Positions 296-34,695 of a stretch of DNA of 64,000 nucleotides are shown here, in pieces (position 1 is the stretch's first letter; each line of letters opens with the position of its first letter). The notes below the pieces were generated by a model. It worked only from the letters and a program-made list of their open reading frames with translations, made no database searches and was not told the origin of the DNA. The translations under genes and the position numbers were made by a program. The DNA comes from a virus (Duplodnaviria; Heunggongvirae; Uroviricota; Caudoviricetes). The stretch is from the IMG/VR virus record IMGVR_UViG_3300031873_001030, one strand, 5' to 3'.

Positions 296-699
296 GAGAG
301 GGATTTTGTAAAATAAAGAATGAGTATGCCTTCTGTTATTATTTTTCATTTGGACAGACTTATAATAGTCTTTGTGGAAAGTTCAAGATAACTCCCACGA
401 AGAATGGATTTATAGTCAGAGAGAGGTGATACACGTATGTTTGAGGAAGAGGAAGAGATTGAAGAGAATGAGGAAGAAGAAGATGAAAAAGTGGAATGAC
501 AAGAAGTTAGTGAAAAATATAATGAAATACGAAGAAGGACTTATGGAAGACAAAGAAGTTGTGCTATTCTTTCAGTATCTTGTTGATATAGGAATGGCTT
601 GGACTTTACAAGGACACTATGGAAGGACTGCCCAATATCTTATTGACAGAGGATTTGTTGAAGACAAAAGAGGTAGGACGAATGTTGAACATTAAATCA

Positions 700-713
700 T
701 TAACATATGTTAA
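700..713. repeat. TTAACATATGTTAA 14-bp perfect palindrome (single copy)
   Basis: Exact 14-mer 5 nt after stop of ORF 372..695; another copy at 988..1001, so ORF 739..975 is flanked by the motif. Confidence 0.9.
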
Positions 714-987
714 TGTAAAAAATATGGGATTGGTGTGAATGTTTGACGAGAAATGGATAGCTCATTTGGAGAAGGAACACAACGAGAGATGTTCTGATAG
801 GGATTTGAGAAAGAAGAATAAGATATATGAAGTTTCTAAAAAGTATGCTAAGGATTGTATCAAGTGTCAATATATCTGTGAGAGAAGCAATAATTTTCAA
901 TCCACGTTGAAAGAGTTGAAGAGAATGGGTTGGAAGATATATTTTCCTAAAGTGAGACAAACCAGAGGAGATTGAAATCTTATGTCA

Positions 988-1001
988 TTAACATATGTTA
1001 A
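988..1001. repeat. TTAACATATGTTAA palindrome (single copy)
   Basis: Exact 14-mer 13 nt after stop of ORF 739..975. Confidence 0.9.
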
Positions 1002-1206
1002 ACATTTTTTTTCTAGCGAACCAAACAGGAAGGTGTAGAATGAAAAAGAAAAAAACATATTGGATAATTGATTGGTGTAATGTGGAAAATTGTAAAGTAG
1101 CATATACATTAACAGAAGCAAGAAAATTTGCGAAAGAATTATATGAAGATAGTTCTCGCGTAATCATATTTCAATATATAGAAGAAAAGAGTTAGAGGTG
1201 TAGAAA

Positions 1207-1578
1207 ATGGGAATGTATAGTTCTACTGATTGGTGTGAATTGAAAGTGAAAAGGGGAAAGGAAATAGAATTTTTTGATTGGCTTAAGAGGAATGAAGATT
1301 GGAAAGAAGCGATAGAAGTATTGAATGGCGAAGTAGAGATACAAGTCAGTTGGAAGATTATAAGTTATTGGTATGACAGCTTCCTTGACGAACTTGAACA
1401 GCTTGCTGAATATATTACAGGAAAATGGATATTGCTTTATGAGACAGGAGAAAGCAAAGCCATAATAACATTTACAGAAGATGACGAAGTGAAGATAGAA
1501 GTTGGGGAAATGGATTATCACAAAATTGATATAGATGATTTGAGAAAGGAAAATATGAAAATGGAAAGGAGTGATTAA
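1207..1578 (+). CDS. hypothetical protein (123 aa)
   Basis: ORF with GAGGTG SD 8 nt upstream; stop codon TAA lies inside palindrome copy 1575..1588. Confidence 0.45.
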   Translation: MGMYSSTDWCELKVKRGKEIEFFDWLKRNEDWKEAIEVLNGEVEIQVSWKIISYWYDSFLDELEQLAEYITGKWILLYETGESKAIITFTEDDEVKIEVGEMDYHKIDIDDLRKENMKMERSD

Positions 1579-1626
1579 CATATGTTAAGAGAGTCGGCGG
1601 ACCCTGAGTTGCTTAACATATGTTAA
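1575..1626. repeat. palindrome pair TTAACATATGTTAA-N24-TTAACATATGTTAA
   Basis: Two exact 14-mers (1575..1588, 1613..1626) flanking a 24-bp GC-rich spacer gagagtcggcggaccctgagttgc. Confidence 0.9.
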
Positions 1627-2313
1627 GAAGCTTCATCCCGTTTCCATAGTAAATTTAAATACTATGGAAACTAATATTACATATGGTTAGATGGAAAAAA
1701 GATAGCCATATGATATTTGACAGCAACAATATCTATAATGATTTAGGTAATTGTTGGATTGACTTGAAAGCAAAGAAAAAAATGAGGTGATATGAAATGC
1801 CTGTTGGAAGACCTAAAGGTTATAGTCCTAAGAGAGATAATCAGAAGTGGAACTATTGCCCAAATTGTGGGAAGAAAGTAAATTGAACTAAAGAGGTAAT
1901 GAATTGTGAATTTGGAGAAGATTGTAAAGAAGATACAATTCCATAAAGAGATATTGATAAAGTTGAAGAATGATATGATTAAGAAGCATAGTCCTTTAGC
2001 TCCTGCGTATATAACTCATATACGTAGTTTGGAAGGTTTCTTGGCATATCTTGAAAAGGAGTTCAAAGCTATTGGAGAACAGAAAGAAGATTGATATGCT
2101 GAAAGGAAGTCTTTATAGATATTTCTTTTGTAAGGAAAAGAAAGAAAAAGAATATAGGTGTCCAAAATGCGATTGTATTTTGGAGATAGAGATAAAATGT
2201 GGACCCAAGTGATATTGATGAATAAATTACACGTAGATATATTTGGTATGGATATGGATTTTGTTAAATGTAATTCTATAAAAAATTCTCAGACAAGCGC
2301 TTCTGAAGACAAC

Positions 2314-2504
2314 TTAACATATGTTAAGAATTCAGCAGTACCTGCAGCAAGCAACTCATTAACATATGTTAAGTATCTCCATCGAATCATCCTTGGCAAA
2401 CGCCAGACCCAGGAACACAAGTCTTTAACATATGTTAATGTAATCATTGGCCGCATTGCCTCAAACAAGAAAGAAAATCCCAGTCGCCCATTAACATATG
2501 TTAA
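2314..2504. repeat. 4-repeat array of TTAACATATGTTAA with unique GC-rich spacers (31, 52, 52 bp)
   Basis: Exact 14-mers at 2314, 2359, 2425, 2491. Spacers ~50% GC versus ~33% background. Both-strand ORFs 2158..2559 and 2289..2564 are explained by translating the repeat (LTYVK/N). Confidence 0.85.
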
Positions 2505-2641
2505 TAAGTTGGTGCCAGCAATTGCTTGGCAACCAACAGCATACAAAGTGATATTATGAATCATATTCCTTTCATATGAAGCAGATATGTGGAAAATATT
2601 TGATACAATAATAGAAGGGAGAAAAAATGAGTTAAAAAGAG

Positions 2642-2854
2642 ATGCGAATAATGAAAATATTTAATTACAACGTGAGCATAACAATAAAGAAAGATTATCC
2701 TAATTGTAAAGCTCCTATTCAAAAGAGATATAGAGAAAAAAAGAGGATGCGTGGTTTTTGTATAAATGGTGGATGTTGGAACAAAGTTGAAAATAACCGT
2801 TCCAAATGTCCAATCTGTATGGAAAAAGATAGGAAGAGATGGAAAGTGAGATAG
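2642..2854 (+). CDS. hypothetical Cys-containing small protein (70 aa), possible zinc ribbon
   Basis: ORF with CINGGC...CPIC pairs; Lys/Arg-rich. Confidence 0.35.
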   Translation: MRIMKIFNYNVSITIKKDYPNCKAPIQKRYREKKRMRGFCINGGCWNKVENNRSKCPICMEKDRKRWKVR

Positions 2855-2867
2855 TTAGTGATTATTT

Positions 2868-3089
2868 GTGGACATAATAATTTCAACATTGATAGCATTT
2901 GGCTCTTTGGTATTGGCGATATTTTTCATACTTATTGCGAGGTGGGACGCAAACAAAGTGATAGATAAGTTGTATAGAGAGGAATATAAAGAGAGAAATA
3001 GGATTGATGCGAATGTTGTCAAATCACTTGTAGGGAACTTGAAACAGAAAAGAGATGATGAAATATCTAGTTCGGAATATACAAAATGA
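2868..3089 (+). CDS. small membrane protein (73 aa)
   Basis: N-terminal hydrophobic helix IISTLIAFGSLVLAIFFILIA followed by charged tail. Confidence 0.35.
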   Translation: MDIIISTLIAFGSLVLAIFFILIARWDANKVIDKLYREEYKERNRIDANVVKSLVGNLKQKRDDEISSSEYTK

Positions 3090-3384
3090 TTTTTAAGTAG
3101 CAACGTGTAATTATTAGATTAGTTAGATATAGAGGAGTGAAGGAAGTAACTAAAGAATCTCGTTTCTTTGGATATTTTCTTTAAGAATAAAGTATAATGG
3201 AGGTGGCAAATGTCATTCTACGAAAGATTGGAGAGGAGAGCAAAAGCACTTAATGATATAATGTGGGGTTCAGACGATGAGACTGAAAGTGAATAACTCT
3301 ACTATTAATACTTTAGCAATTAATTATACTATAGGGACTTTAGGAGTTCCTATGGTATAAAAAATCTAGGGGCTTTGTTCCTAG

Positions 3385-3411
3385 TTAGAAAGGGATATTC
3401 TTCCTTTCTAA
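3385..3411. promoter_or_regulatory. inverted repeat TTAGAAAGG-N9-CCTTTCTAA upstream of 3441 operon (operator-like)
   Basis: 9-bp perfect IR 30 nt upstream of ATG 3441; related GAAAGGG/CCCTTTC IR at 7668..7702 upstream of gene 7964. Confidence 0.4.
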
Positions 3412-3440
3412 AAATATGGTAAAAATAAGGTGATATATAA

Positions 3441-4010
3441 ATGAAGACAATAGAAGTAGAAATAAAAGGTCCTATTTTGCTGATGCATAATCCGAAGTCT
3501 ATGCTAGACCCACAGACTACTGGAACGAAATCATCAACTGCGAAATATGACTATAATGTCGAAGCAGAGAAGTCTGCTTACAAGACGAAAAAAAATGAAT
3601 TATATATTCCTGCCCAAGCTATGTTCAGTTCCACATTGAATGGAGCTTCTTTCAAGAAAGTAGGAAAATATACTGCCAAGAGCATTATAGCTGGCAATAT
3701 GAGAATAGAGCCAGAAGAAATCCTGATTCTAGATAGCAAAGGGAAAGTCATGACAAAATATGAGATAGACTTGAGGACTGTGGTTATTGCTCAAGGTAAG
3801 AAAAGAAACCGAATAGTCAGGGCAAGAGCTATGGTAAAGGATTGGAGTGCTAGATTCAGAATAGTCTATAACGACCAATTCATAGGCGACCCTGCTATAA
3901 TAGAAGATTGCTTGAAGGATGCAGGTTCAAGGATAGGTCTGTTGGAATACAGACCACAGACAAGTGGAAGCTACGGAACATTTGAGATAGTGAAATTCAA
4001 GGTGATATAA
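3441..4010 (+). CDS. hypothetical protein (189 aa), first gene of a two-gene operon with ParB-like gene
   Basis: AGGTGA SD upstream; stop TAA abuts ATG of next gene (taaATGg). Confidence 0.55.
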   Translation: MKTIEVEIKGPILLMHNPKSMLDPQTTGTKSSTAKYDYNVEAEKSAYKTKKNELYIPAQAMFSSTLNGASFKKVGKYTAKSIIAGNMRIEPEEILILDSKGKVMTKYEIDLRTVVIAQGKKRNRIVRARAMVKDWSARFRIVYNDQFIGDPAIIEDCLKDAGSRIGLLEYRPQTSGSYGTFEIVKFKVI

Positions 4011-4895
4011 ATGGCACTATGGGATAGGGAAGAAAGAAAGCATACGGAAAATAAAGTATTGCCACTCAAGGATATAGTATTTGATGAGAACATATATCCA
4101 AGACAAAGTTCATGGTGGCAAACTTCGTATAAATATGCCGAAGAGATGAAAGCAGGCGCAAGGTTTCCTCCAATCACAGTAGGTTTTGTGAATGGAAGAT
4201 ACGTGCTTGTGGATGGGAAGCATAGGAATGACGCACTTCTGATGAATAAGGAGACACATACATCAGTAGTAGTTCTCTATGGTTACACTTTGGATGAACT
4301 CTATATTGAAGCTGTAAAACTCAATAGGGCTCACGGTGTAGGACTTACTTCTTTCGACAAGGTCAAGATAATCAAGAGACTTGAAGATATGAAATATTCA
4401 TTGGGAGACATAGCCACGATAGTCCAGATTCCTTTGGGAAGCATAGAGAAATTTGTAGCACAGAGGATTACGTTAAATCCATTAGGACAAGTCACAGTAT
4501 TGAAATCTCCTCTCAAGTTTATGGCAGGAGGAACTATAACGATGACTGACGAAGAGCAAGATACTCTAAGTGTGAGGAGTGAGATAAGTCTGGTAAATCA
4601 GATGACACAGATATTCTCAAATCCGAAGATGCTAAGGGTTGATATAACATTCGTTGATGCTATCGAGAAGCTTTACCAACTGATTCAAGATTTCCTCAAA
4701 GAACAGAAAATTTTGAATGGAGCTGGAAATACAATAGAAGAAGTTCCAAAAGAGAAAATATACAAGAAAAGAGGAAGACCTAAGAAAATCAAGACTGAAA
4801 GTGAGACTTCAGAACCAAAGAAAAAGGGAAGACCTAAAGGTTCTAAGAACAAGCTTAAAGAACTTGATGTCAGTAACGTCAAAGAACAAGCATAA
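4011..4895 (+). CDS. ParB/sulfiredoxin-fold (ParBc, DGQHR-like) domain protein with C-terminal AT-hook repeats
   Basis: Motif GRYVLVDGKHRNDAL matches the ParB/Srx N-terminal domain signature; C-terminus has KKRGRPKK and KKKGRPKGSK AT-hooks. Confidence 0.6.
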   Translation: MALWDREERKHTENKVLPLKDIVFDENIYPRQSSWWQTSYKYAEEMKAGARFPPITVGFVNGRYVLVDGKHRNDALLMNKETHTSVVVLYGYTLDELYIEAVKLNRAHGVGLTSFDKVKIIKRLEDMKYSLGDIATIVQIPLGSIEKFVAQRITLNPLGQVTVLKSPLKFMAGGTITMTDEEQDTLSVRSEISLVNQMTQIFSNPKMLRVDITFVDAIEKLYQLIQDFLKEQKILNGAGNTIEEVPKEKIYKKRGRPKKIKTESETSEPKKKGRPKGSKNKLKELDVSNVKEQA

Positions 4896-4943
4896 ATAGT
4901 TAATCAGTTAGACTTTATTTGGAAAGAATGAAGCAGGGTTTAG

Positions 4944-5016
4944 TGACAACGAACCTCAGAGATAGAACTTACTGATTCTTAGAATCAGTTGGTTCTTACT
5001 GCGAGGTTCGTTGTCA
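4944..5016 (+). ncRNA. structured hairpin element copy A (~73 nt; TGACAAnnAACCTCAGAG...CTGCGAGGTTnnTTGTCA)
   Basis: 13-bp outer stem GACAACGAACCTC/GAGGTTCGTTGTC; 45 nt after ParB-like stop; T-rich tract follows; 3 more copies with compensatory changes. Confidence 0.6.
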
Positions 5017-5432
5017 TAGTTCCTTCCCTCTTCATACTTTCTTTAATATTAGGGAATTTATAAAAACTGTAGGTTTTTATTATGAGATAAGGTTCGGTTG
5101 GGTCAGTTGGGGTGGGTTCCGTTCCGATATGGTATGGTAAGATTATATTTATTGGACGTGGTAGGATAGGGTAGGATGCGATATGGTATTGTTACTTGTT
5201 CCGATATGGTTCGGTGATTTGGGGTTAGGTTAGGTCTGTTCCGATAGGGCAAGGTATGGTATTTTATTTATTCGATACGGTTCGGTTTGGTGGGTTTGGG
5301 TTAGGCAAGATAAGATAGGGTTAGACAAGGTATCTTACTTTTGTATCCGATTGGGTAAGGTCTGGTAGTATTCGGTCCGTTGTGGTTAGGCACGATATGG
5401 TGTGGTAAGGTTTGACATTTATAGTCAGTCAT

Positions 5433-5491
5433 TAACATATGATAAAGAGTTGGACCCAGTGCACGGGTGGCATTCCATTAACATATGTTAA
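5433..5491. repeat. palindrome pair (degenerate TTAACATATGATAA + exact TTAACATATGTTAA) with 31-bp GC-rich spacer
   Basis: Spacer agagttggacccagtgcacgggtggcattcc resembles spacer at 1589..1612 (shared agagtYgg...accc). Confidence 0.8.
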
Positions 5492-5525
5492 TGAGAAAAG
5501 ATAAGAAATAATGTAAAATGATAAT

Positions 5526-5798
5526 ATGAAGAAGATAAAGGAAGAATTTTGCTTTCGCAGGAATGATACTAGAACTTCATATGATATGCAGAAAGGCTAT
5601 CTGATATATGGCAAGATTGATGACATTTATAATATCATCACTTACAATCTATTTGAGATGTGGAATACTACAAAGTGTTTTAAAAGGTTTAGGAAATTGT
5701 TCGTCACTACTTCAAATCACGAATGGATACATTATCTTGTTCCAGATATAAAAGATGGAAGTCTGATGAAGAAGATTGAAAATTGGTTTAACTGGTAA
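5526..5798 (+). CDS. hypothetical protein (90 aa) flanked by 38-bp direct repeats
   Basis: ORF bounded by ccattaacatatgttaatgagaaaagataagaaataatg at 5475..5512 and 5820..5857. Confidence 0.35.
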   Translation: MKKIKEEFCFRRNDTRTSYDMQKGYLIYGKIDDIYNIITYNLFEMWNTTKCFKRFRKLFVTTSNHEWIHYLVPDIKDGSLMKKIENWFNW

Positions 5799-5822
5799 AA
5801 TGTATCGTTAACCAAAATTCCA

Positions 5823-5836
5823 TTAACATATGTTAA
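5823..5836. repeat. TTAACATATGTTAA palindrome within 38-bp direct repeat
   Basis: Exact 14-mer; second copy of direct repeat flanking ORF 5526..5798. Confidence 0.9.
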
Positions 5837-6150
5837 TGAGAAAAGATAAGAAATAATGAAAATCAAAAAGAGGTAAAAAAAATGAGATACTATTGCCGAG
5901 AACATAAGGAAAGTTTTGAGACTACTGTCTGCTTTCTTCAACATGTTCTTAAGGAACACCATAGCATATTTGACATCACAAGTGAATAGATATTTATGTG
6001 ATGAGGTGGGGTCAAGTCAGGTCGGTTCTGGTTGCGATACTGACCTTATCACACCAAACCTCACCTTACCAGGGTTCGATAAGTTGTGATTTGGTAGGAT
6101 AGGGTAAAGTTATTTATATTTGAAACACGTAATTATATGTCAAGGAAGTC

Positions 6151-6224
6151 TGACAACAAACCTCAGAGTTGGAACTTTCTGGTTCTAAAAAATCACTTAG
6201 TTCTTTCTGCGAGGTTTGTTGTCT
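6151..6224 (+). ncRNA. structured hairpin element copy B
   Basis: Outer stem GACAACAAACCTC/GAGGTTTGTTGTC (A-T pair where copy A has C-G); embedded in GGT array. Confidence 0.6.
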
Positions 6225-6948
6225 TTGTATCGACTTTATCATTCGGTCAGGTAAGGCGGGTTCAGGTGGGGTATAGTTTCGGTTCGGTATGGTAGTTTGA
6301 CATTTATACGATACGGTAAGGTGAGGTTTGGAAGATAGTCTTTATGATTCGGTAAGGTGGGGTCAGTTGCGATTGTGTGAGGTTTGATTTGGTTTGGTCT
6401 GATTTGGTAGTTTGAGGCAAGGTAAAGTTAATTCCTTTTATATGATAAGGTATGGTCTAATTCGGTCTGGTTTGGTTGGATGGGCTACGTTCCGATAAGG
6501 TTCGGTATGGTAATATGACACTTATACGATTAGGTTCGGTCAGGTAAGGTTGGGTCAAATGCGATTAGGTAAGATGAGGTTCGGTCAGATACGGCAAGAT
6601 ATGGTATAATATTTATTCGGTTAGGTGAGGTCAGTTTAGGTCTGGTCTGATGTAGTTTGGCATGGTAGTATAACACTTATCGGTTTGGTTCGGTATGATG
6701 CGATATGGTCAGATTCGGTTTGATATGGTAGTATGACACTTATTGGTCAGGTTTAGTAGAATATGGTAAGGTTCGGTTCGATACGGTGGGATATGGTCAG
6801 TTAGGATTTGGAAAAGGAGAGAATAGTTTCAAGAAAGAATCAGCCCTTGGGTGAGTCCCTTGAAATGAAAAATGCCGCACCAGAGATGGTGATATTAGGT
6901 AAACTAATATAAATCAAGGTTCGAACCGTCCGTTAGGCAACGGTTCTC

Positions 6949-7021
6949 TGACAACAAACCTCAGAGTTAGAACTTACTGGTTCTTGAAATCAGTTGGTTC
7001 TTTCTGCGAGGTTTGTTGTCT
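6949..7021 (+). ncRNA. structured hairpin element copy C
   Basis: Same outer stem as copy B; inner region variable; embedded in GGT array. Confidence 0.6.
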
Positions 7022-7667
7022 TCCTCCAAAAAATTACTTATTCGATAGGGTAAGGATAGGTATGCTATGTCAGGGTCAGGTTTGGTTAGGTTTGATATGG
7101 TATGGTAAGGTAATTTAATACTTTTGCTTTGGTGCAATATGGTAATATTCGGTAGGGTATAATTCGGTGGGTTCCGTTAAGGTATGGTAAGGATTATATT
7201 TATGAAATACGTATATAGGAATAGAGATGATGAAAGGGAACTTAAATTTGAAGTTCCAGATAGTATGTCAATAGCTGAAGCATTTGAATTTGCAGAAAGG
7301 AAATGCGCCAGCATGGAGTGATTATAATTTTTGGTCTGGTAGGGTGCGATTAGGTACGATTGGGTTTGGTCAGATAGGATATGATATGGACTATTGTAAT
7401 TTTCGGTTAGGTGCGGTTAGGTCTGGTTTGGTGCGTTCGAGGTGTGGTCAGATAGGATATGGAACTTTCATTCGTACTTTTCGGTAGGGCATTATTCGGT
7501 CCGATATGGTCTGGTCAATTCCGCTCTGGTTCGGTTAGATAGTGTATGGTGATATATGTTAAGTCGTGGTTTGGTTCGGTCTGGTAGAATGAGGTTTATC
7601 TTTTTTGATAGGCTATCGTTCGGTCTGGTGAGGTATGGTTCGGTAGGGTTCGGCAAGGTTTAATCCT

Positions 7668-7702
7668 TTTAGGAAAGGGTCTTTGATTCATTCCCTTTCT
7701 AT
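7668..7702. promoter_or_regulatory. inverted repeat AGGAAAGGG-N13-CCCTTTCT (operator-like, related to 3385..3411)
   Basis: IR GAAAGGG/CCCTTTC ~260 nt upstream of gene 7964. Confidence 0.35.
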
Positions 7703-7711
7703 AAAAGATTT

Positions 7712-7787
7712 ATCCCACGTCTTCGGGATTTATCCCTTCTTTCAGAAGGGATTTATATATCACCGAATCTCGTTTTAAACGAGATTC
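7712..7787. repeat. cluster of three hairpins (ATCCC-N8-GGGAT; ATCCCTT-N7-AAGGGAT; GAATCTCGTT-TTAA-AACGAGATTC) with repeated GGGATTTAT flank
   Basis: Perfect stems of 5, 7 and 10 bp; related ATCCC/GGGAT hairpins at 25707..25723 and 43488..43503. Confidence 0.6.
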
Positions 7788-7963
7788 ACAAAGAACTTGT
7801 GGTCGGGTCTGATACGGCAAGGTGTGATACGGTAAGATAAGATTGGGTTATGGTCTGGCAAGGAACTTTTTACTTATATGGTTTGGCACGGTCCATTCCG
7901 TTGCGTTTAGGTGTGGTAAGGCTTGGTATGGTTACGATTTATTTGGCGTAACATATGTAATAC

Positions 7964-8632
7964 GTGTATTTAAGGTTTCTTATGTATAGTTATGCTATGG
8001 CAAAAGATGAGAATAGGGAAATAAACGTCAGTGGAAAGACAATTGCCTTAATCCTTATGGTAATCATTACAATATTTTCAGTAGGCAGTCTGATAGTAGC
8101 CATAAATGATAAAGGTCAAGCTTCCTCAGATTCAACTAGCTGGCAGAACAAATATACAACTTGCAGTTCTGGATTAAGCTCTTGCAACTCTCAACTAAGC
8201 TCTTCTCAATCAAGCTCCTCTTCATGCGCTTCACAACTCAATACTTGCAATAGCAACCTTGATTATTATCAGAACACAGGAGGAACTTGCAGTTCAGATT
8301 TGAGCAATTGCAATGCCAATTATAATACCTGCAATGCCAATCTTAACAATTATAAGACACTTTATTCTAATTGCGGTGGCAGTCTGACTAACTATCAGAC
8401 ACTTTATTCTAACTGCCAGTCAAGCTATTCTACTTGTAATTCTAATTTCAATACTCTGACTTCCACTTACAATTCTCTGAAGTCAAATTCTGATGTCATG
8501 GCACAGAATTATGCCAGTATGAAATGCTGTCCAAGCTGGCCATCCACCAAATACAGCTATTACTATACAAGCAATGGAAATGTCTATTGCACTGATACAG
8601 CAACAGCAAGCACAAAACTTACAGGATGCTAA
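7964..8632 (+). CDS. secreted/membrane-anchored Cys-, Ser-, Asn-rich protein (222 aa)
   Basis: N-terminal TM helix IALILMVIITIFSVGSLIVAI; repetitive TCNSN/SSC motifs; true start may be the internal Met (MAKDENRE). Confidence 0.5.
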   Translation: MYLRFLMYSYAMAKDENREINVSGKTIALILMVIITIFSVGSLIVAINDKGQASSDSTSWQNKYTTCSSGLSSCNSQLSSSQSSSSSCASQLNTCNSNLDYYQNTGGTCSSDLSNCNANYNTCNANLNNYKTLYSNCGGSLTNYQTLYSNCQSSYSTCNSNFNTLTSTYNSLKSNSDVMAQNYASMKCCPSWPSTKYSYYYTSNGNVYCTDTATASTKLTGC

Positions 8633-8793
8633 ATCATGAGAAAATATACATCCGACAAATGGTTGAAACCTGGTGAAAAATATATCAGCACTGCAGAGAA
8701 AGAACCTGTTCCTAAAAAGAAATATGGTCATGTAGAAATTCCAGATATAGAAGACGATTGATAACTAATATTATAATAGTTTTTAAGTGGTAA

Positions 8794-9276
8794 GTGATGA
8801 GTTACGACGAGACAAGTGATTTAGCATATCTGATATTATTCGTCGGTTGTATAATTGGATTGCTCATACTTATCGTTGGCTTAGTCGGATTTTTCAATCT
8901 TGTCCAAGGATTATATTTTTGGGATTGGTTCATACTATTTATCTTGACATTCCTAGCTTCAGAAGTTTTCTTCCTTCTTGTATTCAAGAAAAAACCGACA
9001 GGAAATGTATTCTGGAAGACATTTGGAAATAAGATTTTATCTTGGATGTCAGGTTCGTTGATAATCGCAGAATTTACTTCTTTCTATTATTACATTATTC
9101 TGAACATAATCAGAGATTGGCTTACCGTATTGGAAGTATTGACTACTATAGGAAAAATAATTGGAATAGGTGTGATGATTGCATCACTTATTGCTTTTTA
9201 CGTATGGTTCAACACTTTGAGATATAAAAATATCAAAGAACCTAAAGGGAAACTTAAAAAAGTATACAAGAGGTGA
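8794..9276 (+). CDS. integral membrane protein (160 aa, ~4 TM)
   Basis: Four long hydrophobic segments; basic C-terminus. Confidence 0.5.
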   Translation: MMSYDETSDLAYLILFVGCIIGLLILIVGLVGFFNLVQGLYFWDWFILFILTFLASEVFFLLVFKKKPTGNVFWKTFGNKILSWMSGSLIIAEFTSFYYYIILNIIRDWLTVLEVLTTIGKIIGIGVMIASLIAFYVWFNTLRYKNIKEPKGKLKKVYKR

Positions 9277-9702
9277 TTAGTTTCTGATAATTACTCAGAC
9301 ATTCACATTCGGACATAGTGAAAATCTTCTGGCAAGGATATTCTCCTCAAGCACAACACTTGCAAGATGCACATTTGTTTTCAATGAAAGACGCATAATA
9401 GAATATTATATCCGTGAAGAATGGGGTGGAAAAATTGCTGATACAAAAACTATTAATGGTTTCATAGACAGATTATGTAGAGACACCACGCATGAATTTG
9501 TTCATGCTCTTGGAAATTGCCATGTGGAATGGGTACCAAAGATGATGGATAGATGGATGAAAAAACGAATCATATATGCACATTCTGTGGGACAAAGGAA
9601 GGACCTATGATACAGTTTGACTATGACGACTGGGAATGTGAAAAATGCCATAGGATGGGAAGACACATATCACGTAAATAAATATGAATATCAAAATCAG
9701 AA

Positions 9703-10209
9703 TTGAAATATATGGAAGGATATAGTGTAAAGATTGGAAAGTGTTGTAATTGTAAAAAGGATATAACTAAAATGGGATTGAAAATAATAAAAGCAGAAGT
9801 TTTCACGAAAGAAGTATTTGACAAGATAATGAAAGGTGATTATATCGAAAATGCTAAGAAAGAGTATGAAAGCTTTTCCAATCAAAATCAGAGAAAAGGC
9901 CAATGGTTGTGGAATAAAATATGGGATAAAGTAGTTGATAAAGCAAAGAGACCAGAGAGTGAAAAAGATATTCTTGAAAATGAACAATTAGTTTCACATC
10001 ATCTATGGACTATGAAAGATTCTGAATTTGATGAGATGATGTCAAAGAGGGTAGATTGTTCTAAAATCTTGAAACTGATTGACGAATTTAGTAAAAAGTT
10101 TGATGTTAAGACTTTAGAATTATGTGGAGAAACTATAGAATATATTCCTATAACAATTGCAGACTGGAACAACTTTAAGGAAAAACTCAAGCAAGAGATT
10201 TTGAAATGA
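9703..10209 (+). CDS. hypothetical protein (168 aa)
   Basis: Intact ORF, Lys/Glu-rich; N-terminal CCNC motif. Confidence 0.4.
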   Translation: MKYMEGYSVKIGKCCNCKKDITKMGLKIIKAEVFTKEVFDKIMKGDYIENAKKEYESFSNQNQRKGQWLWNKIWDKVVDKAKRPESEKDILENEQLVSHHLWTMKDSEFDEMMSKRVDCSKILKLIDEFSKKFDVKTLELCGETIEYIPITIADWNNFKEKLKQEILK

Positions 10210-10332
10210 TGATAACAACAGCAATATTCATATTACTGAAACTTTTTGTAGAGAATAATAGTGTATCTTGGTGGTGGATGTTACTTTTCATACTCTTTGA
10301 TTTGATGATGGTTCTTACTATCAGAGTAGATT

Positions 10333-10524
10333 TTGGAAGATGAAATTATGAGTTATAAATGTGAAAATTGTAAAGGAACAGTTCCAAACTGTATGCCACA
10401 AATAAAGATAATTGTAGAAAAGAGAGATAAGACATATCCGAATGGAAGCATTGGTTGGGAAACAGTCAAAGAGAAAGTATTGTGCAGTTCATGCAATAAG
10501 GATAAAGAGGTCAAAAAATCATAG
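10333..10524 (+). CDS. zinc-ribbon small protein (63 aa)
   Basis: CENCKG...CSSCNKD (two CxxC pairs). Confidence 0.4.
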   Translation: MEDEIMSYKCENCKGTVPNCMPQIKIIVEKRDKTYPNGSIGWETVKEKVLCSSCNKDKEVKKS

Positions 10525-10649
10525 ATTTCAATCAGATAATTGACAAGTATCTGGATAGGGAAAGGAGAGAAAGAAAGATAGGGGAATATTATGTTAGCGA
10601 GATTCCATATTGTTTAAGATTAACTTGGTTTAGATTCAAACAGCCTAAA

Positions 10650-11186
10650 GTGACATCCAAAAAAACACTCAGGCTATTCGAGAGGGGCAATGTGATTCAT
10701 CAATTCATATCAAAAGTCCTATTGAGTTCGGAAGCAGTAAGGGAAGTAAAAAGTGAACAGTCACTAAGGATACCAAGGATATCTGACAACCCTAAGGAAA
10801 ATTTTCTAATCACAGGCAGATTTGATAACTTTATTGAATTAGTAGAAGGGGAAAATGTGCTGATTGAAGTGAAGACGACAAGAAATCTGGATTATCAGAA
10901 ATCAGCTTCATTGCATCATATCATGCAACTGACACCATATCTTTTATACAAGCAAGGTCTGAAAGGTGCCATATTGTATATAGACATGAACTTCCAGACA
11001 AAAGTATTTGAAGTGATTTATGACCCTAAATTGATGCTGGAAATAATGAAAAGGGCAGAAAATTTGCATATGTATTTAGTGGAAGACAAAATGCCGCTAC
11101 CAGAAGCCAAAGACATACCAGAAAAAAATTGGGAATGCAAATACATATGCAATTATAAAGAGGAATGTGATAAATGTGTTACCTAA
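10650..11186 (+). CDS. Cas4-like / RecB-family PD-(D/E)xK nuclease with C-terminal Cys cluster
   Basis: Motifs ITGRFDNFI (GRxD), LIEVKTT (ExK), QLTPYLLY (QhxxY) and C-terminal CKYICNYKEECDKC. The in-frame extension 10506..10649 encodes the YCLRLTWFRF Cas4 N-terminal Cys motif but has no ATG/GTG/TTG, so the true start is unclear. Confidence 0.65.
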   Translation: MTSKKTLRLFERGNVIHQFISKVLLSSEAVREVKSEQSLRIPRISDNPKENFLITGRFDNFIELVEGENVLIEVKTTRNLDYQKSASLHHIMQLTPYLLYKQGLKGAILYIDMNFQTKVFEVIYDPKLMLEIMKRAENLHMYLVEDKMPLPEAKDIPEKNWECKYICNYKEECDKCVT

Positions 11187-12039
11187 AGTCACATTTGCAG
11201 TCTGCGCATACAATGAGGAAAAGATTATCGCAGAATGTCTGAGACACATAAAGAACGTCGATTATCCTAACAAGGAGATAATAGTCGGAAGCGATGGGAC
11301 TGACAGGACAACTGAGATAGCACAAAATATTGGTGGTGTGGAAGTCATATCATCTGGAGAGAGGCTTGGAAAGACTCAGATGCTGATGAAGATAATAGAG
11401 CAAGCCAAAGGAGATATAATAATCATAAATGATGCTGAATTTTTCCTATTTCCAAATGACGCTGTCTACAAGATTGTAGAAAGTTTTGAGAACGAAAGGA
11501 TAGGAGGATTGTCATTTGGCTCTTCAGCTCCTCATGAGATTGACTTCACAAATTGGTGGGGACTCGTGGAACACGTGATACAGGACATATTCAGATATCA
11601 TAGGATGAAAAAGAACCCACTCACGTCATTGAAAGATGCTAATTTTATCATCGTAGCAAATGCTTTCAGAAAGGATATCATAACAAAGCTTGAGACGATA
11701 AATGATGATGCTGAGATAGGATATCAATTACTGTCTAAAAATCATTATCTGCTATATGTCCCTTCAGTCAGTTTCTATACACCTGGAGGTTCTGCAAAGA
11801 ACATAAAGGATAATATAAACCAGAGGTCAAGGACTGCAGTAGGATGGATACAGATAGGAAAGTTGTATAAGATAAACTTCTTGAGATTCTATATAATCTC
11901 TTTCTGGATGATTGTCAAACTGATATTCAGCCTGATAATCTGGACTGGAGTATTCATATTCAGCTACCTGAAAGGAAGATTCCTCTACATCATAGGCAGA
12001 AGGTCTTCAAAGCAAGTATGGACAAAGGTAAGAAGATGA
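11167..12039 (+). CDS. family 2 glycosyltransferase (GT-A fold)
   Basis: N-terminus FAVCAYNEEKII...VGSDGTDRT typical of GT2; C-terminal TM segments. Confidence 0.7.
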   Translation: MINVLPKVTFAVCAYNEEKIIAECLRHIKNVDYPNKEIIVGSDGTDRTTEIAQNIGGVEVISSGERLGKTQMLMKIIEQAKGDIIIINDAEFFLFPNDAVYKIVESFENERIGGLSFGSSAPHEIDFTNWWGLVEHVIQDIFRYHRMKKNPLTSLKDANFIIVANAFRKDIITKLETINDDAEIGYQLLSKNHYLLYVPSVSFYTPGGSAKNIKDNINQRSRTAVGWIQIGKLYKINFLRFYIISFWMIVKLIFSLIIWTGVFIFSYLKGRFLYIIGRRSSKQVWTKVRR

Positions 12040-12374
12040 GAAAAAAATTCAATTATGAAAACTATTACAAGAAATATTATGAAAGTCATAAGGATAAGCA
12101 CTTGTATTATGTCAATGAATGGAAGAAGAAGCATAAAGATAGTGTAAGAATTTATTCCAAACGTTATTCCAAAAGTTGGAGATTGAGAAACAAAGAAAGA
12201 TTGAAGAAAACTTCAAAAAGATATTATGACAGGCATATCAGAAGTTCTTGGTTCGATAGGATATTTGGTTTCAAATGCAAAGTATGCGGCAAGAGATATA
12301 AAGATAAAAAGGCTTTGGGTGGGCATACCACATATTGTAAAAGAAAAAGGATTGAACTTATTAACATATGTTAA
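12018..12374 (+). CDS. Lys-rich protein with C-terminal C2HC zinc finger (118 aa)
   Basis: FKCKVCGKRYKDKKALGGHTTYC; stop codon TAA lies inside palindrome 12361..12374. Confidence 0.45.
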   Translation: MDKGKKMRKKFNYENYYKKYYESHKDKHLYYVNEWKKKHKDSVRIYSKRYSKSWRLRNKERLKKTSKRYYDRHIRSSWFDRIFGFKCKVCGKRYKDKKALGGHTTYCKRKRIELINIC

Positions 12375-12411
12375 AAAGATTGCATGCAGATAACTTCTTA
12401 ACATATGTTAA
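12361..12411. repeat. palindrome pair TTAACATATGTTAA-N23-TTAACATATGTTAA spanning a gene junction
   Basis: First copy holds the stop of 12018..12374; second copy holds the ATG (catATGtta) of 12405..12995. Confidence 0.9.
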
Positions 12412-12995
12412 TTGCTCGGAAATTCCGAAAAGCAGAAGGTAATGACATGGACCCATTGTGGAACAAGAAATTAGAGATAATAAAGAAGCATGGTATAGAC
12501 AATGCTATTTTGGATTTAGGATGCAACATAGGTGACTTCTCCTCATATTTCGTGAGAAATGGATATGATGTGACTGGCGTCGACATAGACAATGAAAATT
12601 TGCTCATAGCAAACAGCAGAGGGATACATACGAAAAAATGCAATCTGAATCTGAAATTGCCTATGAAAAGCAATTCATATCCTACCATCTTCGCATTGGA
12701 GATAATAGAGCATCTCATCAATCCAGACAATGTCATAAAGGAAGCGCATAGACTGCTCAAAGATGGCGGGAAGTTTTATGTGTCAGTCCCATACTTCGGA
12801 CTAGTAAAAAGAACAGCGATATCGCTGTTCTTTTTTGATGATGTCTTTCTATATAATGGTCCGCATATAAGATTTTTCTCTGAAAAATCTTTCCGTAATA
12901 TATTGACAAAAAATGGATTCAAGATTCTCAAGATTTATAAACTTGGAAGATTCTATCCAGTCTATATGGACATGCTTGCCGTATGCTCTAAATAA
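12405..12995 (+). CDS. class I SAM-dependent methyltransferase
   Basis: Motif I ILDLGCNIGDFS; post-I acidic DVTGVDID; LKDGGKFYVSVP motif. Confidence 0.7.
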   Translation: MLIARKFRKAEGNDMDPLWNKKLEIIKKHGIDNAILDLGCNIGDFSSYFVRNGYDVTGVDIDNENLLIANSRGIHTKKCNLNLKLPMKSNSYPTIFALEIIEHLINPDNVIKEAHRLLKDGGKFYVSVPYFGLVKRTAISLFFFDDVFLYNGPHIRFFSEKSFRNILTKNGFKILKIYKLGRFYPVYMDMLAVCSK

Positions 12996-17742: not shown

Positions 17743-18933
17743 ATGACGTTGAAGAATCTTGTAACGCCATTGGAACTTAAGACTCTCTGGGATTCTGAAT
17801 ATTACAAATCAATATTGACAGCTACAGCTAGCAGCTGCCAATTTGGAAGGATAAGAGAACACCAACGTAATAATACATTCAAAGAAATCAGAGCCAATCT
17901 GAATGCTCTGATAGTTGGAGAATATGGAATTGGGAAATCCACAATGTTGGACATTAAGAATGTCCCAATAGTCAGGGCTAATACAGTTTCAGTTGCTGGA
18001 CTAGCTGGAACTACGACAAGAAGTGGGGAACACGTTATTGGAGCTGCATATAAAGCTAATAATAAATTACTAATTATAGATGACGTTGGTAGTGGTGAAA
18101 ATTCTTATATAGATAATTCTGTAAAACGATGCATGAATCTGCTATTGGAACCTCCGCATACTTTTTCACGAATGTTAGGATTTAAGATGAACATTCCTGT
18201 GAAAGAGAAGAAGGGTGGAGCTTGGGTGAAAGGAAGTGAGAATCAGTTTACATTGCGTTCTAAGTTCAGTTGCATCGTAGCTACAACATCAGTTGTAATT
18301 CGAAATACTGATGACAAAGCTTGGATGTCAAGATTCGTACCAGTAAAACTACATGGTAGTGTGGATTACATGTTTGAATTTTTATCTGGTTCTAATCCAT
18401 TTACAATTACTGGTTTGAATCGGAAAGTCAAGTTATTTGAATTTCCAGATTATCTGGAATTCTTGGAATTCTATGAAGAACATTTTCGTGGAAGTCTGTG
18501 GGAGAAAAGCATAATAGAAAAGGAAGATGAAGTCGGTTCTATAGCGAGAAATACTGGTGACTTGGTAAGATTGGCTGCTTTCAATTGCGCTGTCGATGAT
18601 AGAATAAATATAGAATTTGAAGATGCCAAGAAAGTTTTTGATAGGTTCTACAATCAGATATGGTTCAATATCCAAGTTGGACCACTGACTCATGAACAAT
18701 ATAGAGTTCTATTACTTCTCAATAAGAAGTTGACTGAAGATGAGATAGCAGAAACTATACAAAGGTCACAGCCTTACGTATCTAAGATGATAGAGAAATT
18801 TGAAAGTAAGGGAATACTTGTAGACAGAAAAGTTGCGAAAGAAGTTGAAAACTTTAAACAAACTTCATGGGAAAAACTCGAACCACAGCAGACTTTATCA
18901 GAATCTGTAAAGTTAGATGGTAGTCATGAGTGA
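17743..18933 (+). CDS. AAA+ ATPase with C-terminal winged-helix domain (Orc1/Cdc6-like or mobile-element replication initiator)
   Basis: Walker A VGEYGIGKST; Walker B LLIIDDVGSGE; C-terminal wH LTHEQYRVLLLLNKKLTEDEIAETIQRSQPYVSKMIEKFESKGIL. Confidence 0.55.
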   Translation: MTLKNLVTPLELKTLWDSEYYKSILTATASSCQFGRIREHQRNNTFKEIRANLNALIVGEYGIGKSTMLDIKNVPIVRANTVSVAGLAGTTTRSGEHVIGAAYKANNKLLIIDDVGSGENSYIDNSVKRCMNLLLEPPHTFSRMLGFKMNIPVKEKKGGAWVKGSENQFTLRSKFSCIVATTSVVIRNTDDKAWMSRFVPVKLHGSVDYMFEFLSGSNPFTITGLNRKVKLFEFPDYLEFLEFYEEHFRGSLWEKSIIEKEDEVGSIARNTGDLVRLAAFNCAVDDRINIEFEDAKKVFDRFYNQIWFNIQVGPLTHEQYRVLLLLNKKLTEDEIAETIQRSQPYVSKMIEKFESKGILVDRKVAKEVENFKQTSWEKLEPQQTLSESVKLDGSHE

Positions 18934-24415: not shown

Positions 24416-24479
24416 TTAACATATGTTAATCAGTGATGCAGCATAATGCAAAATTCCTTCAGTCTTTAACATATGTTAA
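24416..24479. repeat. palindrome pair TTAACATATGTTAA-N36-TTAACATATGTTAA
   Basis: Two exact 14-mers flanking 36-bp spacer tcagtgatgcagcataatgcaaaattccttcagtct, adjacent to tRNA cluster. Confidence 0.9.
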
Positions 24480-24677: not shown

Positions 24678-24751
24678 GGAGAATAGAGGGATTTGAACCC
24701 TCTCTAACAAGTTCACAGCTTGACGTGCTCGCCTACTACACCATATTCTCC
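24678..24751 (-). tRNA. tRNA-His (anticodon GTG) with G-1
   Basis: Acceptor GAGAATA/TATTCTC plus an extra 5' G pairing the discriminator C (His hallmark); D-stem GTGT/GCAC; anticodon loop CTGTGAA; T-arm GAGGG-TTCAAAT-CCCTC. Confidence 0.75.
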
Positions 24752-25212
24752 ATTTTATTATGTTCTTCTCTATGGCAATTTGCACATAGAAGTTTGCATT
24801 TCTGCAATTCTTTTCGTATCACCTCGAGACTATTATGCCATATTCTGGATATTTCATATTTCTTTTCTCCGTTCATATGATGAAATTCAAGTGCTGCGAA
24901 ACATTTGTTATATCCACATTTTTGACATTTACCTCCAAATTCCATTTTCATAATTTTTGTTTTTTCTTGGTTTTTACGCTTTTGTGCTATATACCACAAA
25001 TGTCTCTGAGGGAGAGATGATTTTTGTTTATGTTGTTTTATATATTTTCTCATATATTCTCTATGATATTTTTTCCTTTTTTCTCTGTTTTCAGGGTTTG
25101 ACAACCAAATTTTCCATCGTTCTTTTTCTTGCTCACGGTGTGATTTTCTATATAATCTATTTATTTCACACAATCGTTCTTTGTTTTTTTCATAATATTT
25201 TTTACTGGTCAT
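24736..25212 (-). CDS. HNH endonuclease
   Basis: CQKCGY...LEFHHMNGEK...LCANCHREEH (HNH/zinc-finger nuclease signature); the 3' end of the ORF overlaps the 5' end of tRNA-His. Confidence 0.65.
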   Translation of the reverse strand: MTSKKYYEKNKERLCEINRLYRKSHREQEKERWKIWLSNPENREKRKKYHREYMRKYIKQHKQKSSLPQRHLWYIAQKRKNQEKTKIMKMEFGGKCQKCGYNKCFAALEFHHMNGEKKYEISRIWHNSLEVIRKELQKCKLLCANCHREEHNKMENMV

Positions 25213-25333: not shown

Positions 25334-25437
25334 TACTCCCCGAATGATTCGAACATTCGTCTCTTGGTTTCTCCAAGTTTCAGATTCTTGTTGAAATTAT
25401 CAAAGCCAAGCATCTTTGTCCACTGGACGAGGGGAGT
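25334..25437 (-). tRNA. tRNA-Gln (anticodon TTG) with ~31-nt intron at 37/38
   Basis: Acceptor ACTCCCC/GGGGAGT; T-arm GAATG-TTCGAAT-CATTC; anticodon stem CTTGG/CCAAG enclosing 38 nt (CTTTGA + 31-nt insert); intron contains TCAA complementary to the anticodon region (BHB-like). Confidence 0.6.
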
Positions 25438-25469
25438 ATATTGATTGTAGTTCTTTTTAAAAACTATGG

Positions 25470-26358: not shown

Positions 26359-26598
26359 AGTATTATCAGTAATTGCAAAAATATATCTCCGAAATCGGGA
26401 AGGTTACAGATTCACTGGAAACCAGCGAAGCATTGTCGATGCTATGAAATCCTTCCCAGTAGGAGATAAATTTATTTGTGCAGATAATCTTAAATACTTT
26501 AACAACCGATATAATTGTATCTCTCATACAGCTATGGGATTCATAATACAACAACAGGATGTAGTACAGTTTCCGTAGCGATTTTGGAGGGTACATTT

Positions 26599-26859
26599 AT
26601 GGATACCATCACGCTATATATACTTAGAACAAAGCCAGAGACACATTTCTATGTTGGAATTACTAAAGACCTTGATAAGAGATTAGAACAGCATAAAAAT
26701 AATCCAAATGTCTCTTGGGTAAAAAGAAGAAACTTTAAATTTGATTTAGTATGGAGAGAGAAATTTCCTGATTTGAAATCTGCAAGGAAAAAGGAGAAAT
26801 ATTATAAGAAAATGGAAAGGAAAAGACTCTTAAAAATCATTGGGATAAAAGGAGTGTGA
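26599..26859 (+). CDS. small GIY-YIG nuclease-superfamily protein (YhbQ/Slx1-like), paralogue 1
   Basis: LYILRTKPETHFYVGITKDLDKRLEQHK GIY-YIG core; GGAGG SD 9 nt upstream of internal ATG 26599 (track ORF starts 26515); paralogue at 35982..36239. Confidence 0.65.
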   Translation: MDTITLYILRTKPETHFYVGITKDLDKRLEQHKNNPNVSWVKRRNFKFDLVWREKFPDLKSARKKEKYYKKMERKRLLKIIGIKGV

Positions 26860-33878: not shown

Positions 33879-34622
33879 TTGTATACTTTCTTTGAAGAAA
33901 GTATTATGATAGAAGATGAAATTATAAGCGGGAGAATTTCTATTGGTCGGGTTGGTATTTATCTTAATGCTAAGACTAAAGGTGGTTACAATATAGGATT
34001 TAATTTTCTTAATAGTCCAGAGCTGAGGACTGCGGGCGTGTGCAATATCACGAAGGACCAGATGTTTATAATGTTTGCTGATTTTGACAATATAGGTTAT
34101 GAAAAACTTAAAGACCAGTTGGATTTCATAAATAGGAATCATGATGTGAGCAATTTTCTTGTTCTTACGACTGGAAAGAATCGATATCATGTGATAAGTT
34201 TTGAAAAATTCTGGAAACAGGAATTAGTTGACATATTGAAGAATACTTTCTGCGATTATACGTATAAAAGTTTTGTTCCGTTGAAAGTTGACAAGGGCTG
34301 GATACTTAGGGTGACTGAAAAGAGGGATTTGGATAATAATGTTGTGAAGGACAGGCCTGAATATGTAGAATCGTTTTCTTATTCTGAAGTCCCTAAGAGG
34401 AGATTGTCGCGTGCTCACGTAGAATTTTTTTCGAGAATGTATCCTGAATTCAGGAAATTTGCAGAGGAGAAGCTTGATAAAAATTATTGGGATGAGTTTA
34501 CTGTGATTCAGCTGCTGAAATATGGGACAAGCCATGAGAATCTTATTGCAAAATTTGACTTGAAGGATTTGATAGATTCCAAGAAGCTTGAAATAGTGTG
34601 GAAGGACAATATATTTGATTAG
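33879..34622 (+). CDS. putative primase-polymerase (AEP/prim-pol-like) domain protein
   Basis: AEP-like motifs: FIMFADFDNIGYE (DxD), TGKNRYHVISF (sxH), VDKGWILRV (D..hR); stop codon abuts hairpin element copy D. Confidence 0.4.
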   Translation: MYTFFEESIMIEDEIISGRISIGRVGIYLNAKTKGGYNIGFNFLNSPELRTAGVCNITKDQMFIMFADFDNIGYEKLKDQLDFINRNHDVSNFLVLTTGKNRYHVISFEKFWKQELVDILKNTFCDYTYKSFVPLKVDKGWILRVTEKRDLDNNVVKDRPEYVESFSYSEVPKRRLSRAHVEFFSRMYPEFRKFAEEKLDKNYWDEFTVIQLLKYGTSHENLIAKFDLKDLIDSKKLEIVWKDNIFD

Positions 34623-34695
34623 TGACAATGAACCTCAGAGTAGGAACCAACTGGAAAGTGGAATCAGCAAGTCATAACTGCGAGGTTCATTGTCA
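34623..34695 (+). ncRNA. structured hairpin element copy D
   Basis: Outer stem GACAATGAACCTC/GAGGTTCATTGTC (two compensatory pairs relative to copies A-C); followed by gcttttatt T-tract. Confidence 0.6.

Follow-up and report, generated by a model that had tools for sequence, protein, structure and literature searches.

A conserved 14-bp palindrome, a putative operator-like site, punctuates the early gene arm of a virus-like element that carries a VIPR locus

The DNA analysed here is a stretch of 64,000 nucleotides (the window) from IMG/VR virus record IMGVR_UViG_3300031873_001030 (Caudoviricetes), belonging to a virus-like element of ~92 kb that is represented by independent assemblies of 92,011 and 91,950 bp. 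Genes recognised in the element are those for a MoxR ATPase, a VWA protein, an ATP-dependent DNA ligase, a ParB-like protein, a Cas4-like nuclease, glycosyltransferases, methyltransferases, a P-loop and winged-helix protein, an ERCC4 nuclease, tRNAs and giant DUF285 proteins. The element's proteins have very few relatives, and searches of 50,697 phage records with megablast and blastn found no matching DNA. The subject of this report is TTAACATATGTTAA, a perfect 14-bp palindrome that is present in 14 exact copies in the window, together with one copy carrying a single mismatch (5432, TTAACATATGATAA) and one carrying two (16605).

Part of the palindrome-bearing region is occupied by a VIPR locus. 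VIPR, a class of RNA-guided DNA-binding systems described only in 2026, is defined by a RAMP-like Vipr protein, arrays of YNNGG vrRNA and an accessory DNA-binding gene (bioRxiv 10.64898/2026.04.26.720920). The open reading frame (ORF) at 3441-4010 encodes a Vipr homologue, as a profile made with its homologues matched PDB 36pp, 'SUSP1 Vipr protein', with E = 9.1e-16. The ParB-like accessory gene at 4011-4895 adjoins it, and AT-hooks were recognised by eye at the C terminus of its product. Two large vrRNA arrays of YNNGG (GGY/NN) repeats lie at 5088-5410 and 5995-7930, with 6-13 units per run and at least 20 runs in all. Judged by its sequence, 3441-7930 is a complete VIPR system under the published definition. 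The palindrome copies of the window, except the two-mismatch copy, and the extended repeat units that contain two of them are listed below.

700-713, exact palindrome: 4 nt past the stop of ORF 441-695 and 25 nt ahead of the ATG at 739.
988-1001, exact palindrome: 12 nt past the stop of ORF 739-975 and 38 nt ahead of the ATG at 1040.
1575-1588, exact palindrome: holds the TAA stop of ORF 1207-1578 in motif bases 2-4; first member of a pair.
1613-1626, exact palindrome: second member of that pair; the preceding 24-nt spacer is 67% GC.
2314-2327, exact palindrome: copy 1 of an array of four with start-to-start spacings of 45, 66 and 66 nt.
2359-2372, exact palindrome: copy 2 of the array of four.
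2425-2438, exact palindrome: copy 3 of the array of four.
2491-2504, exact palindrome: copy 4 of the array of four; the ATG at 2642 is 137 nt downstream.
5432-5445, one-mismatch copy TTAACATATGATAA: directly after the first vrRNA array; its right half is of the half-site type found in the relative L047.
5472-5517, plus strand, 46-nt extended unit consisting of the palindrome and TGAGAAAAGATAAGAAATAATG: 87% conserved in the relative L002 at 7659-7703.
5478-5491, exact palindrome: within the unit at 5472-5517; 34 nt ahead of the ATG at 5526.
5817-5862, plus strand, second copy of the 46-nt unit: 98% identical to 5472-5517; the two units bracket ORF 5526-5798.
5823-5836, exact palindrome: within the unit at 5817-5862; 45 nt ahead of the ATG at 5882.
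12361-12374, exact palindrome: encodes the C-terminal residues NIC and the TAA stop (bases 12-14) of the zf-C2H2 gene at 12036-12374.
12398-12411, exact palindrome: its ATG at 12405 opens the longest methyltransferase ORF; the likelier start is 12447.
24416-24429, exact palindrome: in the gap where plus-strand ORFs and the tRNA cluster of the minus strand converge.
24466-24479, exact palindrome: 47 nt past the 3′ end of the minus-strand tRNA-Tyr.

When up to two mismatches were allowed, the window held 16 matches against 0.91 expected from dinucleotide-preserving shuffles (shuffle maximum 5; 0 of 100 shuffles reached 16). The palindrome that a first-pass annotation of this DNA had described at gene boundaries is thus genuine and non-random. 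That annotation gave its range as 693-12411; copies do lie inside this range, and two more lie beyond it (24416 and 24466) and 11 upstream of the window. The latter were found on Logan contig L041, which overlaps the start of the window and extends 9.2 kb upstream, and all 11 are exact. An 80,273-bp reconstruction joined from L041, the window and contig L042 carries 25 exact palindromes, compared with 0.003 expected from base composition. All 25 fall within its left 33.6 kb (P = 3.6e-10), with 23 in the left 21.6 kb, where every gene is on the plus strand (binomial P = 1.3e-11); the remaining 46.6 kb has none. The exact 14-mer was not found in a literature search, and the paired-palindrome pattern gave 0 matches in IMG/VR.

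Palindromes occupy intergenic gaps or extend a few bases into the ends of genes, and nearly every gap between early genes holds one. Some copies overlap the next start codon and others lie as far as 170 nt from it; three copies contain the upstream stop codon (L041 4916, window 1575 and window 12361). The earlier statement that the TAA stops of ORFs 1207-1578 and 12018-12374 lie within the motif is correct. Since TAA occurs in two of the motif's three frames on either strand, the motif is mostly barred from coding positions and ends ORFs automatically; given this TAA content, the ATG that the motif also contains and the very short intergenic gaps, the occurrence of stop and start codons in it is largely automatic. 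The ATG could open a real ORF in only 2-4 of ~38 copies. The start codon of the DNA ligase lies inside the copy at L041 7763, with the Shine-Dalgarno-like sequence AGGAAGTGAT directly upstream; counted from this start, ligase motif I (KIDG) comprises residues 31-34, and the arrangement is kept in the relative L018. For the methyltransferase gene, the ATG at 12405 does coincide with the CATATG of the motif, as first annotated, but its role as the true start is doubtful: the ATG at 12447 has an AAGGT Shine-Dalgarno-like motif 6 nt upstream, which 12405 lacks, and is more likely to be the start. Within the array at 2314-2504 the start-to-start spacings are all multiples of three and one frame is open through the four copies on both strands, such that plus-strand ORF 2158-2559 contains LTYV four times and minus-strand ORF 2289-2564 behaves likewise; the chance of this is ~1 in 27.

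Conservation was examined in relatives of the element. L018 is syntenic with L041 2593-9469, with protein identities of 67-78% (47% for the last ORF). At orthologous junctions the palindrome is kept at 14 of 14 bases, whereas conservation of the spacers and the flanking DNA is poor (alignments A1-A4). The shared junctions are those between the small gene after MoxR and the VWA gene, between the VWA gene and the next gene, at the ligase start and at the ligase end. Both genomes have three palindromes at the second of these, one of which is decaying in L018; the ligase start and end have single palindromes, which are conserved as well as the pairs. The site is therefore conserved at orthologous non-coding positions (A1-A4 and synteny), as is expected of a dimeric operator, and the alignments indicate that purifying selection acts on each palindrome in place. 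Because L041 and L018 keep palindromes at the same junctions, function in place is favoured over mobility. The identical 14-mer is also present in L002 and L021, and 38 of 40 sites are invariant in the clade of the window.

A more distant relative, L047, which is the first 18.9 kb of a 66-kb contig, has a ligase of 53% identity and a left arm organised alike. Its motif takes the forms TATCATATGATA (14 copies), TAACATATGATA (4 copies) and TATCATATGTTA (3 copies), giving 14 palindromic and 7 hybrid sites in which positions 4 and 11 vary without association (Fisher P = 1.0). The near-copies at window 5432 and L018 3618 are hybrids of the same kind. No asymmetric element at a fixed offset was found across 38 aligned palindrome copies; the flanks show a weak, symmetric bias (pyrimidines at -3/-2, purines at +2/+3), their complementarity is not above that of shuffles, and they show no pairing covariation. 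Half-sites thus evolve independently rather than as base pairs, judged from the L047 hybrids and flank pairing. These half-site and flank results favour two half-sites on duplex DNA that are read by a symmetric dimer. A structure that needs intramolecular pairing is disfavoured, because positions 4 and 11 are independent and the flanks have no excess complementarity.

RNase III sites of T7 early mRNA and stabilising REP (repetitive extragenic palindromic) sequences act in RNA. By analogy, neighbouring copies of the palindrome might pair in a polycistronic early mRNA to form an intercistronic 14-bp stem around the spacer and direct processing, 3′-end formation or mRNA stabilisation. Pairs are predicted to fold at -15.4 to -23.5 kcal/mol (z-scores -3.8 to -5.9), several have the first copy over the upstream stop codon and the second before the next gene, and vrRNA arrays and the tRNA operon likewise have sites past their ends. 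The single copies at the start and end of the ligase gene are nevertheless conserved, although they fold weakly alone; one third of the L047 sites are hybrids, which would place a mismatch in the stem, and positions 4 and 11 do not covary. The lack of excess flank complementarity and the variable length of the spacers (22-111 nt) also speak against an RNA stem, and we regard such a role as improbable.

Public collections were searched for two copies 20-50 nt apart, which returned relatives of the element and unrelated loci. In several candidate phyla radiation (CPR) bacteria (L036, L037, L039, L040, L014, L017 and L019), two copies of TTAACATATGTTAA 34-56 bp apart lie directly upstream of the small helix-turn-helix gene of HTH_17-Fic/Doc operons. 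In a Pacearchaeota metagenome-assembled genome (L038, DPANN), the gene downstream of a pair encodes a nucleotidyltransferase domain, and an N-terminal helix-turn-helix was read by eye in its translation. From its position, the palindrome is probably an autoregulatory operator at the CPR and Pacearchaeota loci. These loci share the identical 14-mer with the element but are otherwise unrelated to it, and HTH_17 was not found in the 80 kb of the element examined; they imply no homology and are a hint that the sequence makes a good protein-binding dyad.

Taken with the conservation data, these results lead us to read the palindrome of the element as a conserved, operator-like site for a DNA-binding protein, repeated from gene to gene along the early arm, with a probability of about 0.5. 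It would be a cis-acting, dyad-symmetric site on double-stranded DNA with the consensus TTAWCATATGWTAA, read by a homodimeric, sequence-specific protein encoded by the element or its host. Standing alone or in clusters of 2-4, with ~36-82 bp from one to the next, the sites lie in nearly every early-gene gap and beside the VIPR arrays and would allow this protein to co-regulate the early-gene arm, with occupancy switching transcription units together. As a by-product, identical short repeats at gene boundaries would serve as recombination substrates through which small genes are added or removed. The abundance of the sites, their restriction to the left arm, their conservation at orthologous junctions, the independence of half-sites and the lack of a need for a partner copy are observed; that a protein binds the sites, which way it regulates (as repressor or activator) and which factor it is are matters on which we infer rather than observe.

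Operators of KorA and KorB on RK2 and the 14-bp operators of phage 434 are short dyads of 12-16 bp, intergenic, conserved and read by dimers. The sites described here resemble these sets, as they are generally known, in that many repeated short dyads lie on one replicon, singly or in clusters, and differ from them in being almost invariant, in overlapping stop and start codons and in being confined to one genome arm.

Several results weigh against a role as operator. No cognate DNA-binding protein was identified and no candidate tracks the motif; an HTH_17 profile made from the CPR antitoxins gave 0 matches in six-frame translations of the window and the 80-kb reconstruction, and the ParB-like protein occurs with vrRNA arrays in L003 and L005, which have no palindrome in 7-10 kb. 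With 38 of 40 sites invariant, the clade of the window is also less variable than many sets of operators. Because the distance from site to start codon is variable and no promoter has been placed, a link to transcription initiation is something that we infer. In addition, paired copies would form very stable RNA hairpins, as given above, and the spacers between pairs have a GC content of 0.46 compared with 0.34 in their surroundings, for which an operator offers no explanation. Spacings between sites are 36-50, 64-66, 73, 82, 95 and 125 bp; helical phasing was considered and rejected, since no consistent phase was apparent when the positions were judged by eye.

Dispersed palindromes of 13-16 bp serve as binding sites for several ParB-family proteins, KorB, Noc and SopB among them. 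With a ParB-like gene at 4011-4895, in whose product a helix-turn-helix after the N-terminal domain was recognised by eye (A6), the palindrome might instead be a DNA site with a role outside transcription: a ParB centromere, a site for a nuclease (Cas4-like, ERCC4, HNH or GIY-YIG), or a replication or packaging signal. That the element encodes several nucleases and a DNA ligase is in keeping with this. Against it, L003 and L005 keep the module of vipr and ParB-like genes together with the arrays and have 0 palindromes in 7-10 kb, and the putative recognition helix of the ParB-like protein is equally divergent among motif-bearing genomes and between these and motif-free genomes. Pfam scans covered 91 ORFs in ~80 kb of the ~92-kb element, the last 11.7 kb lying outside the scan, and no ParA-like gene was detected among them. 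A set of 25 sites across 33 kb is also unlike a single origin or pac site. We consider a non-transcriptional site of this sort highly improbable. The ParB-like protein in particular is a poor candidate binder and was rejected by co-occurrence (57% identity in L003 and 51% in L005, with no palindrome) and by the alignment of recognition helices.

Gene content differs between relatives next to palindromes. In L002, a 7.5-kb block that begins right after the 5478 unit is missing; in L021, ORF 2642-2854 is missing beside that genome's palindrome; and where L041 and L018 have a 336-bp gap with three palindromes, L047 has ~2 kb in which 8 palindromes are interspersed with small ORFs. Such gene-sized differences abut palindromes in four places. 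In L021, ~50 nt around each of the palindromes at 2201 and 2326, ahead of a vrRNA run, are almost identical. The first-pass annotation had noted that ORFs 739-975 and 5526-5798 are each bracketed by copies and had proposed that palindrome-bounded small genes are shuffled. The bracketing of the first ORF is as described (copies at 700 and 988), and the second is indeed flanked by a direct repeat that contains the palindrome, although this repeat is 46 nt long rather than 38 bp. As for shuffling, some differences in gene content do abut copies, but sites are stable where synteny is kept. The comparison of gene order that had been suggested as a check gave the same two-sided answer, with indels abutting palindromes on one side and L041 and L018 showing identical order and sites at the same junctions on the other.

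PeSLs (promoter-early stem-loops) of T4-type phages combine a strong sigma-70-like promoter with an effective stem-loop terminator and give rise to mini-circles (PMC2839356, PMC4122927). They were defined in PMC2839356, where recombination between repeated regulatory motifs was demonstrated for these phages. As in the T4-type phages, the repeats of the element bound small, variable early genes and indels abut them, and ORF 5526-5798 is flanked by direct repeats of the unit; the palindrome might be the core of a comparable terminator and promoter module whose repeats drive the shuffling of small genes by homologous recombination. Extended repeats do exist, such as the 46-nt unit and the ~50 nt around the two L021 palindromes, and the indels listed above agree with this proposal. 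The association of indels with palindromes is, however, expected anyway, because indels of whole genes have their ends between genes, where a copy is almost always present, and the sites are stable where gene order is conserved. The element also differs from PeSLs in that no promoter consensus, sigma-70-like or other, is seen at a fixed offset from 38 copies and in that a single copy forms a weak hairpin (best -5.1 kcal/mol) with no consistent T-tract after it. A scan with the sigma-70 consensus, which may not be that of the host, gave 72 sites against 55.3 ± 5.9, a weak enrichment, and neither this nor a terminator consensus scan showed an informative association with the palindrome. The combined terminator and promoter element that the first-pass annotation had put forward is likewise not visible as a fixed module, as no conserved asymmetric flank was found and the start-codon distance varies. 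A PeSL-like module is therefore unlikely in our estimation; by analogy with T4 PeSLs, passive recombination between repeated regulatory motifs is plausible.

Repeats in intergenic regions are also known in halovirus HF2, where they were conjectured, and then tested, as promoter carriers (PMC8707807). The palindrome resembles them in its location in viral intergenic regions; the HF2 repeats are direct repeats of 58 bp and 29 bp with AT-rich promoter motifs, whereas the element has a perfect 14-bp palindrome with no fixed AT-rich box.

The first-pass annotation had further compared the motif with cassette-boundary elements and suggested a search for a tyrosine recombinase or transposase. A true boundary of mobile cassettes, either integron attC-like or mobilised by an enzyme in the manner of REP sequences, would fit the extragenic position of the sites and the bracketing of single small ORFs (739-975 and 5526-5798). 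As with attC sites and REP sequences or bacterial interspersed mosaic elements (BIMEs), extragenic inverted repeats lie at gene ends. The Pfam scans, however, detected no tyrosine recombinase, REP-associated tyrosine transposase (RAYT) or other transposase among the 91 ORFs, the perfect 14-bp site has neither attC architecture nor the GTAG head of REP sequences, and syntenic relatives keep the sites at unchanged junctions. A mobile cassette boundary is accordingly scarcely credible, and the resemblance to attC or REP is not upheld, since length, symmetry and positional stability all differ. Each candidate was rejected on two grounds. Integron attC sites are imperfect inverted repeats (R''-L''/L'-R') of about 57-141 bp with extrahelical bases and a GTTRRRY core, unlike a perfect 14-bp palindrome without conserved flanks; they also go with a linked IntI tyrosine recombinase, attI and Pc, and Phage_integrase and other recombinase families are absent from the scans of the 91 ORFs. 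REP and BIME sequences are imperfect and 20-40 nt long, whereas the sites, though extragenic, are perfect and 14 nt long, and no match to Y1_Tnp or another transposase family was found. An array of the CRISPR or TIGR type (the latter as defined in PMC12045711) was also rejected: such arrays have regular units beside a Cas or Tas effector and spacers that match foreign DNA, but here the spacers are irregular (22-111 nt) and without matches in the DNA compared, orthologous spacers look diverged rather than replaced, and the Pfam scans of the 91 ORFs contained no Nop or Cas family.

In L021, L002, L047 and the window, vrRNA units have palindromes on their flanks or ahead of them. The VIPR module is found in relatives with and without the palindrome, and the two are therefore separable. 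When vrRNA targets were sought in the DNA compared under a 1-nt skip rule, the best matches were no better than those of shuffled guides, and no relatives of the Vipr protein were found in GTDB species genomes. A near-perfect hairpin of ~72 nt occurs four times (4944-5016, 6152-6223, 6950-7020 and 34619-34695), once directly after the ParB-like gene, twice inside vrRNA arrays and once far away, with RNA minimum free energies of -40 to -48 kcal/mol and z-scores of -7 to -8. Rfam gave no match for either the vrRNA arrays or these hairpins.

The palindrome pair at 24416 and 24466 lies just beyond a tRNA cluster. In one tRNA gene of the element (25334-25438, minus strand) the anticodon loop is interrupted by a 31-nt intron; ARAGORN assigned the gene the anticodon TTA (UAA suppressor), and placing the intron at the canonical position 37/38 would instead give TTG (Gln). 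A short intron at this site suggests an archaeal splicing system and so hints at an archaeal host. ORF 24736-25212 (minus strand), inside the cluster, has an HNH endonuclease-like motif recognised by eye, and the small ORF 26515-26859 (plus strand), near the cluster, is GIY-YIG-like; Pfam GIY-YIG was matched in two scanned ORFs, which are not identified by name. From their sequences, the HNH-like and GIY-YIG-like ORFs look like free-standing homing endonucleases. The gene at 17743-18933 encodes a 396-aa protein with an N-terminal P-loop (weak MCM/AAA matches) and a C-terminal winged helix (MarR/TrmB-like), the domain order of Orc1/Cdc6-type initiators, and has only three relatives in 5.8 billion proteins. 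The giant ORFs at 49389-60647 and beyond 62346 begin with one DUF285-repeat protein of 3752 aa, after which come ORFs that encode 1736 aa and at least 1460 aa, which are partly outside the window and have no family assignment.

In a bolder form of the operator reading, the palindrome would label the boundaries of a dedicated system in which one symmetric factor, binding ~25 invariant sites, controls access to all of the early arm with its vrRNA arrays, and the sites would double as recombination joints for small ORFs, making them an archaeal-virus counterpart of T4 PeSLs in a new, VIPR-carrying and possibly archaeal virus lineage. Taken as a whole, this is speculative and improbable. A bolder variant still would have the units of palindrome, GC-rich spacer and palindrome transcribed into functional stem-loop small RNAs.

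The 14-mer and its A/T variant at positions 4 and 11 amount to a testable cis-regulatory code in the early arm of a virus group with hardly any annotated relatives. The 14-mer can serve as a probe for related genomes, as a marker of the limits of early transcription units and as bait for the regulator by DNA affinity. Sites that flank the VIPR guide-RNA arrays may show how these arrays are switched on or insulated. Recombination between sites, if true, would extend the use of regulatory repeats as shuffling joints beyond the T4-type phages.

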